This document shows positions 7,498-10,130 of a stretch of 10,201 nucleotides of DNA, piece after piece. The position numbers and the translations under genes are program-made. Each line of letters starts with the position of its first letter. Position 1 is the stretch's first letter. The stretch lies in the UHGV virus genome UHGV-1546769; one strand, 5' to 3'. The notes under the pieces were generated by a model. The model was not told where the DNA came from and searched no databases. It was given only the letters and a program-made list of their open reading frames with translations. The stretch is from a virus.

Positions 7498-8034
7498 ATG
7501 TCATTTATTAAAACTTTTTCCGGGAAGCATTTTTATTATGACAGGATAAATAAAGACAACATCGATATTAACGATATCGCGGTTTCCCTTTCAAATATCT
7601 GTCGCTTTGCCGGTCATCTTTCACACTTCTACAGCGTCGCCCAACATGCGGTGCTTTGCAGCCAGCTGGTGCCGCAGGAATTTGCTTTTGAAGCGTTAAT
7701 GCATGATGCAACAGAAGCGTATTGCCAGGACATCCCCGCGCCACTGAAACGCCTTCTTCCTGACTATAAACGGATGGAAGAAAAAATAGACGCCGTAATC
7801 CGTGAGAAATACGGGTTACCCCCGGTTATGAGTACGCCCGTGAAATATGCCGATCTCATCATGCTGGCAACCGAACGCCGTGATCTCGGGCTTGATGATG
7901 GCTCTTTCTGGCCTGTACTGGAAGGCATCCCGGCAACAGAGATGTTCAACGTGATTCCACTGGCACCGGGCCATGCCTACGGGATGTTTATGGAACGCTT
8001 CAACGAGTTATCGGAATTACGCAAATGTGCATAA
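7498..8034 (+). CDS. yfdR: HD-domain phosphohydrolase (5'-deoxynucleotidase YfdR-like)
   Basis: 178 aa from the ATG at 7498, which has GGAG 7 nt upstream (the track start at 7435 has no RBS). HD motif residues are visible in HLSHFYSVAQHAV and EALMHDATEAY. Size and motifs match my recollection of CPS-53 YfdR. Confidence 0.8.
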   Translation: MSFIKTFSGKHFYYDRINKDNIDINDIAVSLSNICRFAGHLSHFYSVAQHAVLCSQLVPQEFAFEALMHDATEAYCQDIPAPLKRLLPDYKRMEEKIDAVIREKYGLPPVMSTPVKYADLIMLATERRDLGLDDGSFWPVLEGIPATEMFNVIPLAPGHAYGMFMERFNELSELRKCA

Positions 8035-8903
8035 CTCATGTAGTTAGTTTTTCTGGCGGGAGAACATCTGCATATCTTGTTCACCTGATGGAAGAACAAA
8101 GAAAGGCTGGCAATAACGTCTGCTACATCTTTATGGATACCGGTTGCGAACATCCGCTGACATACCGCTTTATTCGGGAGGTTGTGAAGTTCTGGGGCAT
8201 ATCGCTAACTGTGTTGCAGGTCGATATAAATCCAGAGCTTGGGCAGCCAAATGGTTATACGGAATGGGAACCAAAGGATATTCAGACACGAATGCCGGTG
8301 CTTAAACCGTTTATGGACATGGTAAAAAAATATGGCACGCCATACATCGGCGGCGCGTTCTGCACTGACAGATTAAAACTCACCCCCTTCACAAAATACT
8401 GCGATGACCATTTCGGACGAGGGAATTACATCACATGGCTGGGTATTCGTGCAGACGAACCTCGTAGGCTGAAACCGAAATCGGGCGTCCGGTATCTTGC
8501 CGAGCTATCTGATTTTGATAAGTCGGATGTTATCCGGTGGTGGCATAAACAACCTTTTGATTTGCAAACCCCGGAGCACCTCGGGAACTGTGTTTTCTGC
8601 ATCAAAAAGTCCACGCAAAAGCTGGGGCTTGCATGTAAAGACGAACCTGGTCTGATGCGAGTTTTTAATGAGCTGGTTACAGGTAAACACGTCCGGGATG
8701 GTCACCGAAAGACAAATAAAGACGTTATGTACCGTGGTCATCTGAGCCTTGACGGGATTGCCAGAATGTATGCCGACAGCGACTACAGAAATTTGTATCA
8801 GGCGATGGTGCAAGCCAGGCGATTCGATACCGGCTCGTGTTCAGAGTCATGTGAAATCTGGGGTGATCAATTGGAGTTGAAATTCGAAGAGGTGGTGGCA
8901 TGA
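8025..8903 (+). CDS. PAPS-reductase-like PP-loop ATP pyrophosphatase family protein
   Basis: 292 aa. PP-loop SFSGGRTSAY at residues 8-17, DTGCEHPLTYRFI matching the PAPS reductase DTGxxFPETY block, LGIRADEPRR matching the conserved Arg/acidic block, and a CVFC pair near residue 190. The start overlaps the upstream gene by 10 nt; the stop overlaps the next start as ATGA. Confidence 0.85.
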   Translation: MCITHVVSFSGGRTSAYLVHLMEEQRKAGNNVCYIFMDTGCEHPLTYRFIREVVKFWGISLTVLQVDINPELGQPNGYTEWEPKDIQTRMPVLKPFMDMVKKYGTPYIGGAFCTDRLKLTPFTKYCDDHFGRGNYITWLGIRADEPRRLKPKSGVRYLAELSDFDKSDVIRWWHKQPFDLQTPEHLGNCVFCIKKSTQKLGLACKDEPGLMRVFNELVTGKHVRDGHRKTNKDVMYRGHLSLDGIARMYADSDYRNLYQAMVQARRFDTGSCSESCEIWGDQLELKFEEVVA

Positions 8904-9373
8904 CAACCAAAATTAACTATCAGGCACTGCGTGAGGCGGCAGAAGCAATAAAAATAGTAGCCACACCACAAAAATTGCTGGCATTTCGTATGAAAGTCAC
9001 ACCGCAGGTTGTGCTGGCGCTGCTGGATGAGCTGGAAGCAGCAGAGAAGCGAAACGCTGAATTACAAAGCGAGAATGCATACATCCGCAACCGGTACAAA
9101 GAACTGGACCTATTAATCGGGAAAAACATTCTGGTCATGCAGGCTGCCATTATCGAATGGCAGGCAACTGGCGACGCTAAGAGCGGACTGGCATGGATTT
9201 ATAACACACTGTTTGGCCCTGGCGAATTACCGGACGAATCTGAGAAAGATGCTCAGGCCTACTTTAATCGCAAATATGCACCGATTGACGAAAAGCTTAT
9301 GGCGCTTCACAAGTGGTTTTGGGAACAAAGTGAAGCCGAGCGCGCCGCTGGCATTTGCATCAAAGGAGAGTGA
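8900..9373 (+). CDS. Coiled-coil phage protein (possibly ead/Ea22-like)
   Basis: 157 aa. The N-terminus INYQALREAAEA and the coiled-coil-like segment LDELEAAEKRNAELQSENAYIRNRYKEL resemble Ea22-like early proteins of lambdoid phages, from memory only. ATGA overlap with the upstream gene. Confidence 0.55.
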   Translation: MTTKINYQALREAAEAIKIVATPQKLLAFRMKVTPQVVLALLDELEAAEKRNAELQSENAYIRNRYKELDLLIGKNILVMQAAIIEWQATGDAKSGLAWIYNTLFGPGELPDESEKDAQAYFNRKYAPIDEKLMALHKWFWEQSEAERAAGICIKGE

Positions 9374-9374
9374 G

Positions 9375-10130
9375 ATGATTCACTATCACGGTGGGCCTAT
9401 TACTCCGGATACGTGCGCCATGAGAGCATGGAAAGGGCGACATGCGTTTATCAGTTTTGCGCATTCAGGCCAGATCAATCTCGCGGCTGAATACTGTCAG
9501 TCGTTCGCGCTGGACAACGGTGCATTCACCGCCTGGAAAGCAGCTGGCAAAAACAAAATCGACTGGAGCGATTACTACGAGTTTGTCGCTCGCTGGAAGA
9601 ATCACCCAGGATTCGATTTTGCCATTATCCCTGATGTTATTGATGGCGGAGAGGAAGAAAATGATGCGCTTCTGAATGAGTGGCCTCACGGAAAACTAGC
9701 TGGCGTTCCAGTGTGGCACATGAATGAAAGTGACGAGCGATTTATTCATTTGTGCAATGAGTTTCCGCGAGTGGCTATCGGTAGTTGTGGCGACTATGAC
9801 GTAAAGCGCCCAACTCTTGCGGTAGCCAGAATGAAAGACCTGATTCGTCACATTGTTGATGAGCATGGTCAGCCGGTTACGAAACTACATGGATTGCGCA
9901 TGTTAAATCCGCTGATATTCACAAAATTACCCTTAGCCAGCGCAGATAGTACGAACGTCGCTCGAAACATCGGTATTGATAAAGCCTGGTCTGGGGCTTA
10001 TGCACCTGCAAGTAAAGAGACACGCGCAGCATTAATGGTAGAACGGATTGAGGCACACAATAGCCCTGGTTCTCTTGCGTATTGTGAACAACGCGACCGC
10101 TTTGAAATGCAATTGCAACTGGCAGTTTAA
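9375..10130 (+). CDS. tRNA-guanine transglycosylase (TGT)-superfamily protein lacking the zinc subdomain (DpdA-like candidate)
   Basis: 251 aa from the ATG at 9375 (AGGAG 9 nt upstream; the upstream stop TGA 9371-9373 is 1 nt away). By manual comparison with E. coli Tgt from memory: FALDNGAFTAW vs LTDSGGFQVFS (first catalytic Asp block), AIIPDVID vs VMIFDECT, RVAIGSCGD vs YAVGGLAVGE, and ADSTNVARN vs FDCVMPTRNARN (nucleophile Asp block). The protein ends about 55 aa later with no CxCxxC...H zinc motif. Confidence 0.65.
   Translation: MIHYHGGPITPDTCAMRAWKGRHAFISFAHSGQINLAAEYCQSFALDNGAFTAWKAAGKNKIDWSDYYEFVARWKNHPGFDFAIIPDVIDGGEEENDALLNEWPHGKLAGVPVWHMNESDERFIHLCNEFPRVAIGSCGDYDVKRPTLAVARMKDLIRHIVDEHGQPVTKLHGLRMLNPLIFTKLPLASADSTNVARNIGIDKAWSGAYAPASKETRAALMVERIEAHNSPGSLAYCEQRDRFEMQLQLAV

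Follow-up and report, generated by a model that had tools for sequence, protein, structure and literature searches.

DpdA proteins, which are found in bacteria and phages, form a branch of the tRNA-guanine transglycosylase (TGT) superfamily. In Escherichia phage CAjan, 2'-deoxy-7-cyano-7-deazaguanosine (dPreQ0) occurs at ~32% of G in the phage DNA, and deletion of dpdA abolishes this modification (PMC6884629). The dpdA gene of phage 9g, expressed alone in E. coli, puts 7-cyano-7-deazaguanine (preQ0) made by the host into plasmid DNA, at 0.03–0.3% of G (PMC6884629). The active site of the bacterial enzyme follows the pattern D95...F99, D130, H181 and D256 (PMC10164549). The third group, 'DpdA only', of the catalogue of Hutinet et al. 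2019 (PMC6884629, Supplementary Data 1) lists protein YP_007011024 of Salmonella phage SPN3UB as DpdA and also includes Enterobacteria phages HK106 and SfI and Salmonella phages BTP1, SEN1 and 7-11. Here, we describe a homologue of these proteins encoded in the UHGV virus genome UHGV-1546769, a stretch of 10,201 nucleotides (hereafter, the window), and its relationship to two genes lying upstream of it, one for an HD-domain phosphohydrolase and one for a PP-loop enzyme resembling 3'-phosphoadenosine 5'-phosphosulfate (PAPS) reductases.

The two upstream genes also have described relatives. YfdR is an HD phosphohydrolase resembling YfbR; its affinity for nucleotides is low and it binds DnaA, and overexpression of yfdR with yfdQ plus yfdS or yfdT inhibits replication initiation (Noguchi and Katayama 2016, PMC4776307). 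Phage PAPS reductases have been regarded elsewhere as candidate anti-defence genes or as auxiliary metabolic genes (AMGs) of sulfur metabolism (for the AMG view, bioRxiv 10.64898/2026.02.18.706556), and a two-gene cassette with p0018 of Vibrio phage 44E38.1, moved to a sister phage, enabled growth on a Dnd-carrying host (Piel et al., bioRxiv 10.1101/2021.05.05.442762). The original prediction, made from the sequence of the window alone, joined the three genes into one hypermodification module. Our analysis leads to a different reading, to which we give a probability of about 70%: the distal early-left operon is a string of exchangeable accessory genes that are co-transcribed and do not constitute one pathway.

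Mosaic organization of the locus

The open reading frames (ORFs) and their motifs are as predicted: the PAPS-reductase-like ORF starts inside the end of the HD gene, with an overlap of 10 nt, and its product carries SFSGGRTS at residues 8–15 and DTGCEHPLTY at residues 38–47. A further gene, not named in that prediction, encodes an Ead/Ea22-like protein and overlaps the PAPS-reductase-like gene by 4 nt. The DpdA-like ORF comes next, with an AAGGAG ribosome-binding site (RBS) upstream and its ATG 1 nt past the preceding stop codon. One reading of this arrangement is an integrated module, in which the PAPS-reductase-like enzyme would make or tailor a 7-deazaguanine-type base (in place of QueC, or by attaching sulfur or some other group), the HD protein would handle a nucleotide intermediate and DpdA would insert the product into DNA. 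Translational coupling of the genes within one operon fits such a module, as does the fact that both the PAPS-reductase-like and the DpdA-like families have DNA-modifying members. Nevertheless, the unrelated ead gene stands between the two in the window, and the three genes are almost never found together elsewhere.

In no complete E. coli genome, of 5,426, is 80% or more of positions 7400–10201 present in one place; 3,550 of the genomes match part of this region, and the best records hold the yfdR (HD) and PAPS-reductase-like pair. IMG/VR provided 80 contigs whose DpdA-like protein is at least 90% identical to that of the window; 64 of these extend at least 2.5 kb upstream and are thus informative. 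The PAPS-reductase-like gene was near dpdA in only one contig and an HD homologue in nine. As the usual neighbours, 58 contigs have an Ead-like gene upstream that differs from the one in the window, and 57 have a DUF551-like gene downstream. A second sample consisted of 80 contigs with a close homologue of the PAPS-reductase-like gene, 76 of them informative upstream and 69 for DpdA. Here yfdR lay immediately upstream in 54 of the 76 and yfdQ, the conserved neighbour upstream of yfdR, was found in 56 of the 80 loci, while dpdA lay within 5 kb in two of the 69. The pairing of the PAPS-reductase-like and DpdA genes does recur in IMG/VR contig L019/L227, a point in favour of the module. In the close relative BroCaecum-55, other small genes come after yfdR and the PAPS-reductase-like gene in place of dpdA, and in another, S115, these two genes are followed by ead and by an XF1762-family gene in the position of dpdA.

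The dpdA gene also has joints of its own. Compared with unrelated prophage contexts (L005, L001 and L019), identity rises from ~30–50% to 96–100% at ~9340–9350, and it drops again relative to unrelated DpdA contexts after ~10140–10150, just past the stop codon. Given these jumps at both ends, the gene is a single-gene cassette of ~800 bp whose left joint falls in the last codons of ead; by the identity profile, the last ~10 ead codons (from ~9340) belong to the DpdA cassette. The DpdA gene was matched in 934 of the 5,426 complete E. coli genomes (about a sixth), at full length in 201, and the cassette is also present in many Salmonella prophages.

The co-occurrence counts, the gene swaps in relatives, the positions of dpdA and the cassette joints all agree, and the prediction of one hypermodification module of three enzymes therefore fails. 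The HD/PAPS-reductase-like block and the DpdA gene are separate, shuffled mosaic accessory genes and not one new pathway, and the juxtaposition of the PAPS-reductase-like and DpdA-like genes is no more than chance. Within this mosaic, the tight partners of yfdR are yfdQ and, for this lineage of prophages, the PAPS-reductase-like gene; dpdA is not one of them. We consider an integrated module very unlikely.

The DpdA cassette is carried by plasmids as well: of the 1,243 places where it occurs in E. coli assemblies, 264 are on plasmids. The best match of all, with 99.6% identity, is at positions 17522–18348 of NZ_CP069886.1, a 91.6-kb E. coli plasmid that is presumably a phage-plasmid. As for the Ead-like protein, its residues 46–145 (the C-terminal two-thirds) match the PADLOC 'DpdH' model PDLC02890 (E 1.7e-37), and the commoner Ead-like variant of 141 amino acids found upstream of dpdA in the contigs above gave no match to this model. 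The match could reflect a real tie to Dpd systems or a contaminated model.

Identity of the DpdA-like protein

The DpdA-like protein had no match in Pfam, NCBIfam or PADLOC, and none of its 55 relatives matched Pfam, including the TGT profile PF01702, even at E values of up to 10. Searches of PDB sequences with the protein and with its family profile returned only noise (coiled coils and designed repeats). As a control, the knock-out-validated CAjan DpdA likewise gave no Pfam or PDB-sequence match. The missing TGT match is, therefore, not evidence against DpdA, and the original prediction was wrong to treat it as a refutation. The deciding evidence came from profile comparison: hhalign aligned the 55-member family profile with CAjan DpdA at 98.9% probability (E 1.6e-17, 174 columns), which points decisively, at the sequence level, to membership of the DpdA family. 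CAjan DpdA was also retrieved by BLASTP (E 3e-8) and directly matches 54 of 80 species-level homologous loci. Moreover, the protein matches phrog_887, 'queuine tRNA-ribosyltransferase', with an E value of 2.9e-103, and shares 93% identity with SPN3UB gp54 (YP_007011024) along its entire length. Given this identity to a listed protein, the gene is an already catalogued member of the DpdA-only family. Altogether, the predicted TGT/DpdA-like identity is upheld, and the placement of the 251-amino-acid protein in the DpdA branch of the TGT superfamily is supported by these alignments.

The structure prediction suggested along with that identity gave a confident AlphaFold2 model (mean predicted local distance difference test score, pLDDT, 92.9) with a TIM barrel, the TGT-type (beta/alpha)8 fold, for which Foldseek returned generic TIM barrels. 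Both catalytic Asp blocks noted in the sequence align with those of CAjan DpdA, LDNGAF (D47) pairing with LDSGAF and SADST (D191) with SCDSS. Across the 55 family members, D47, H172, S189, D191 and S192 are invariant, and D87 (at least 90%) and H115 nearly so, a set of residues that reproduces the bacterial pattern D95...F99, D130, H181 and D256. The three-Asp pattern of bacterial DpdA (acid/base, base recognition and nucleophile) would be matched by D47, D87 and D191, and the D-x3-F spacing at D47 agrees with that of D95 and F99, this mapping onto the bacterial numbering being transitive and hence putative. CAjan residues 147–209 align to positions 200–259 of the PADLOC DpdA profile. The zinc motif CxCx2Cx22H is absent from the DpdA-like sequence, as had been pointed out for the zinc subdomain, and the validated CAjan DpdA has no CxCxxC...H either. 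This indicates that the zinc site marks bacterial DpdA and TGT and not phage DpdA1.

The lack of the zinc subdomain and of the Ins8 DNA-binding insertion of bacterial DpdA might suggest that the protein is not a DNA preQ0 insertase at all and acts instead on tRNA or on protein (by Cap10-like deazaguanine binding or transfer), as a glycosylase or as a host-takeover factor. Such a role would agree with a family that has no preQ0 genes in Enterobacteriaceae and with the little or no DNA modification found in DpdA-only phages (PMC6884629). Nevertheless, the closest characterised relative by sequence, CAjan DpdA, is a DNA enzyme that lacks the zinc motif too, all three active-site Asp are conserved, and one gene call (P0353) fuses a DpdA-like protein to a D12 Dam methyltransferase. 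In addition, DNA methyltransferases, QueD and YhhQ-type transporters are neighbours of the clade, and no CD-NTase or Cap9 neighbour was seen in the 80 species-level loci. A role outside DNA seems unlikely to us, though not negligible.

P0353 is a lone gene call, and its fusion may be artefactual. Among the longer homologues, this D12-Dam::DpdA-like protein is joined by one that is apparently fused to a baseplate protein and by others without domains, altogether too thin a set for a conclusion. The virulent T1-like phages Lg3 (Tunavirus; L003, 4019–4846), vB_KpnD_Opt-79 and Phleasolo encode a ~40% identical homologue, which is listed merely as a hypothetical protein; no preQ0 genes are annotated near it.

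Neighbours of the DpdA clade in other lineages

The 80 species-level loci, one genome per species, were found with an 18-sequence alignment and come from Enterobacterales, Pseudomonas, Burkholderiales, Acidobacteria and Planctomycetes. Among the neighbours, phrog_37496 is the most conserved, a protein of 81–90 amino acids whose gene overlaps the start of dpdA; it was recovered in 15 loci by ORF clustering and in 29 of the 80 by tblastn. Its alignment contains invariant Cys-Pro, His-Glu and His residues, and it had no match in Pfam, NCBIfam, PADLOC or PDB sequences; it may resemble QueF or a T-fold protein. The window does not contain it, but outside Enterobacteriaceae it is probably the real accessory partner of this DpdA clade. 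One example lies at L112:5756-6004, and others include those in loci L109, L118, L121, L146–L152, L155, L161 and L162.

QueD (PF01242) adjoins the DpdA-like gene in six loci and a YhhQ-type transporter (PF02592) in five (together, 11 of the 80), which would tie the clade to 7-deazaguanine chemistry. No gene for 7-deazaguanine synthesis or transport was found in the window, in agreement with the predicted lack of preQ0 synthesis genes, or in the 80 E. coli/Salmonella-type DpdA loci. The suggestion that the host preQ0 pool is used is the published expectation for DpdA-only phages (PMC6884629).

DNA methyltransferases (PF00145, PF01555 and PF05063) are encoded within 3.5 kb in 25 of the 80 loci and adjacent to the DpdA-like gene in 11. 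Distant PAPS-reductase-like genes (25–36% identity) occur within 6 kb in eight, four of them directly adjacent, and HD homologues are near in three. The recurrent adjacency of PAPS-reductase-like and DpdA-like genes is the sole evidence that keeps the integrated module alive, at a very low probability. Also in keeping with a module, phage 7-11 contains dADG (2'-deoxy-7-amido-7-deazaguanosine) without a known amidating enzyme (PMC6884629). Methyltransferases, however, adjoin the DpdA-like gene more often than PAPS-reductase-like genes do (11 loci versus 2–4), which fits a general DNA-modification hot spot, and a homologue of the PAPS-reductase-like protein works in a phage without a reported DpdA. 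The simplest reading is that DpdA sits in a hot spot of DNA-modification and anti-restriction genes, with PAPS-reductase-like genes as interchangeable residents, and the Dam fusions of both families fit a DNA-directed role for each separately.

It is quite improbable that in a minority of prophages, perhaps including this one, the PP-loop enzyme and DpdA cooperate in making or modifying a non-canonical derivative of 7-deazaguanine in DNA, such as a thio- or amido-derivative. If true, such cooperation might account for the unexplained dADG in the DpdA-only phage 7-11, and the adjacency in Acidobacteria, Burkholderiales and Enterobacteriaceae would be due to a genuine pathway of two enzymes and not to a hot spot that both share.

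The yfdR and PAPS-reductase-like genes

Profile searches with the upstream proteins bore out the predicted families: in Pfam, the PAPS-reductase-like protein matched PF01507 (E 3.1e-9, residues 5–72 only), and the HD protein matched YfbR-like, slightly under the curated cut-off (E 2.7e-5; score 24.4 against 25.9). The latter matches phrog_318, 'deoxyribonucleoside 5' monophosphate phosphatase', over its full length (E 9e-110). Its ATG at 7498 agrees with the RefSeq start of yfdR in close relatives, and RefSeq loci ~98% identical in DNA carry the annotation yfdR. By these sequence matches, the HD protein is identified as YfdR, an orthologue of E. coli yfdR.

The PAPS-reductase-like protein also matches phrog_33262 and phrog_424 (~1e-92). 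In PADLOC, SspD was its best match (E 2.7e-15), followed by BrxP (1.4e-4) and DndC (7.5e-4), and a scan of the six plus-strand proteins between 5931 and 10130 revealed no DndA/D/E or SspB/C partners. In the family alignment, S10, G11, G12, R13 and S15 of the PP-loop SGGxxS motif are invariant, as are five cysteines (C113, C126, C189, C192 and C276), a sixth, C272, being present in at least 90% of the sequences. Fold neighbours include PP-loop sulfur-transfer enzymes that depend on [4Fe-4S] clusters, and together with the six conserved cysteines they are suggestive of an Fe-S cluster. Neither a match to the QueC profile PF06508 nor QueC as the closest fold was obtained, and QueC is less close to the enzyme than are APS reductase, SspD and DndC-type enzymes.

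True PAPS/APS reductases (CysH-type) have a catalytic C-terminal ECGLH motif. The PF01507 match and the matches to CysH-type enzymes among PDB sequences could indicate a CysH-like AMG of sulfate assimilation; its PHROG category is 'moron, auxiliary metabolic gene', and this function has been proposed for Bifidobacterium prophages (bioRxiv 10.64898/2026.02.18.706556). Only the N-terminal 70–100 residues (the PP-loop) match CysH, however, and the C-terminus lacks the ECGLH motif and reads ...GSCSESCEIWG... instead. Moreover, SspD outscores all else in PADLOC, E. coli already has cysH, and in the 55% identical Vibrio phage homologues P0215 and P0201, the PAPS-reductase-like domain (PF01507) is fused to Dam (PF05869). 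P0215 is p0018 of Vibrio phage 44E38.1, so genetic evidence ties a homologue to anti-Dnd activity. A role in sulfate assimilation is extremely unlikely in our view. The most likely role is anti-defence through DNA-directed adenylation or sulfur chemistry, which we favour by inference from these relatives.

Proposed roles of the accessory genes

All the components belong to known families, the DpdA protein itself has already been catalogued, and there is no novel base-exchange system here. From homology, fold and residue conservation, from gene order and mosaicism, and from the lack of co-occurrence, we are led to the favoured explanation, in which these are most likely independent anti-restriction and host-takeover genes, with DpdA using host preQ0; from this evidence we infer every activity, preQ0 as the substrate and the benefit against restriction. 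The genes would be co-transcribed early after induction or infection and would act separately. YfdR would be a weak deoxynucleoside 5'-monophosphate phosphohydrolase that also binds DnaA. The PAPS-reductase-like enzyme, probably with an Fe-S cluster, would counter, for example, Dnd/Ssp-type phosphorothioate-dependent restriction, and the Ead/Ea22-like protein may have a role in early development. After replication, the DpdA-like enzyme would swap some guanines in phage (possibly also host) DNA for host-made preQ0, presumably by a double displacement as in TGT and bacterial DpdA, in which D47 would be the general acid/base and D191 would serve as the nucleophile. DNA modified in this way, at a low level or at specific motifs, would be less open to restriction.

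Several points weigh against this explanation. The top structural match of the DpdA-like protein is Cap10, which acts on a protein substrate. The anti-Dnd transfer used two genes and a fusion protein, in which the PAPS domain was not isolated. PAPS-reductase-like genes (PF01507, 25–28% identical to that of the window) stand directly beside DpdA-like genes in the four distant genomes listed in Table 1, so the two families may have some functional association. Among the measured DpdA-only phages, Salmonella phage 7-11 contained 0.02% dADG and Orion none (PMC6884629), and we found no published nucleoside or restriction data on lambdoid DpdA-only phages. The modification level, and hence the benefit, is the weakest link of the favoured explanation.

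The cassette of ~800 bp provides a well-delimited test case for DpdA-only biology, the 'DpdA only' group being the largest DpdA group of the 2019 catalogue. Annotations of the adjoining PAPS-reductase-like family differ, some naming an AMG of sulfur metabolism and others an anti-Dnd factor.

Prophage context

The window is part of a lambdoid prophage of E. coli of the mEp460/CPS-53 type. Complete E. coli genomes contain prophages, annotated with cro/cI, yfdP, yfdQ, yfdR and PAPS reductase, to which 84–89% of the 10.2-kb window aligns with 97–98.5% identity. For phages, among them vB_EcoM-720R4, mEp460 and Lys8385Vzw, the aligned share is 53–72%. After the cI-like repressor gene, the plus strand carries, in this order, yfdP-like, yfdQ, yfdR, PAPS-reductase-like, Ead/Ea22-like and DpdA-like genes; the coordinates of all features are given in Table 1. 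A candidate PL-like promoter just past the repressor gene would drive the early-left operon holding yfdQ, yfdR, the PAPS-reductase-like gene, ead and the DpdA-like gene. A twin site with identical hexamers and spacing lies at 4971–4942 on the minus strand, upstream of cro. The two flank the cI-like repressor gene, point outward and look like a PR/PL pair, as a pattern match only. Considering the promoter-like site just past the repressor gene and its twin before cro, together with the annotation of relatives, the predicted location of the three genes in the early-left operon is reasonable. A scan of the window with Rfam gave no match.

The small LexA-like gene on the minus strand encodes a protein of ~108 amino acids, a stand-alone LexA-type DNA-binding domain without the peptidase domain, and is labelled 'LexA family protein' in RefSeq records of relatives.

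Table 1. Features of the window and PAPS-reductase-like genes directly beside DpdA-like genes in other genomes
Feature	Position	Strand	Basis or remarks
KilA-N gene	503–1300	−	early-right genes
rusA	1320–1709	−	early-right genes
Small LexA-like gene	~1706–2035, inside ORF 1706–2263	−	between Dam-type methyltransferase gene and rusA
Phage Dam-type methyltransferase	~1764–2669	−	other arm from the PAPS-reductase-like gene
O-like replication gene	2764–3756	−	early-right genes
ymfL	4101–4685	−	early-right genes
cro	4713–4910	−	early-right genes
cI/LexA-type repressor	5006–5659	+	Peptidase_S24 plus helix-turn-helix
Candidate PL-like sigma-70 promoter, TTGACA-18-TACATT	5746–5775	+	consensus scan, 10/12 matches
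yfdQ (DUF2303)	6545–7369	+	PF10065, E 5e-92; annotated yfdQ in close E. coli relatives
yfdR, HD-domain 5'-deoxynucleotidase-like, CPS-53-type prophages	7498–8034	+	phrog_318, RefSeq
PAPS-reductase-like PP-loop enzyme, DndC/SspD type, 292 amino acids	8025–8903	+	PF01507, PHROG, PADLOC
Ead/Ea22-like protein	8900–9373	+	PF13935, E 1.3e-10; phrog_18739, phrog_250
Single-gene DpdA cassette (approximate mosaic block, ~800 bp)	9345–10145	+	ead 3' tail, RBS, ORF 9375–10130
DpdA1-type DNA guanine transglycosylase homologue, 251 amino acids	9375–10130	+	TIM barrel; D47, D87, D191; no zinc subdomain
Adjacent PAPS-reductase-like gene, Granulicella	L124:4875-5780
Adjacent PAPS-reductase-like gene, a proteobacterial metagenome-assembled genome	L140:4938-5915
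Adjacent PAPS-reductase-like gene, Cupriavidus	L131 ~5015-5760
Adjacent PAPS-reductase-like gene, Paraburkholderia	L136 ~6950-7450

Comparison with known systems

The upstream part of the operon resembles the yfdQ-yfdR-yfdS-yfdT cluster of E. coli K-12 CPS-53, with yfdP, yfdQ and yfdR in the same order. In K-12, yfdS (DUF551) and yfdT come after yfdR, whereas here this position is taken by the PAPS-reductase-like gene, ead and dpdA. The PAPS-reductase-like protein shares 55% identity, over 96% of its length, with p0018 of Vibrio phage 44E38.1, and all the conserved Cys and PP-loop residues are kept; both are phage accessory genes. Unlike p0018, it lacks a methyltransferase fusion, a Dam-type gene being located instead on the other arm. 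With the phosphorothioation enzymes DndC, SspD and BrxP, it has in common the PP-loop PAPS-reductase fold and conserved cysteines, but the PADLOC matches span only its N-terminal half, and it is much shorter, with 292 amino acids compared with profiles of ~470–480 positions for DndC and 779 for BrxP.

The bacterial DpdA of Salmonella Montevideo (PDB 7UI4) has 413 amino acids, insertions Ins1–3 and Ins8 and a CxCx2Cx22H zinc site, and it needs the ATPase DpdB; the window protein has neither those insertions nor the zinc site, and no dpdB or dpdC is nearby. It is closer to the DpdA of the Seuratvirus CAjan, with a homologous TIM-barrel core, the LDxGAF and S(A/C)DS(T/S) motifs and, in both, no zinc motif and no Pfam match. 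The two differ in that they are 24% identical, CAjan DpdA has 306 amino acids and a different C-terminal part, and its gene belongs to a folE-queD-queC-queE-yhhQ cluster, none of whose genes is in the window. The closest correspondence is with DpdA1 of the SPN3UB type, which shares the size of ~250 amino acids, the temperate lambdoid setting, a phage without preQ0 genes and a host in which the queuosine pathway is complete. In SPN3UB and IAI39, dpdA is located past the replication genes, in the nin region, whereas here it follows yfdR, the PAPS-reductase-like gene and ead in the early-left arm, and the proteins themselves are materially alike.

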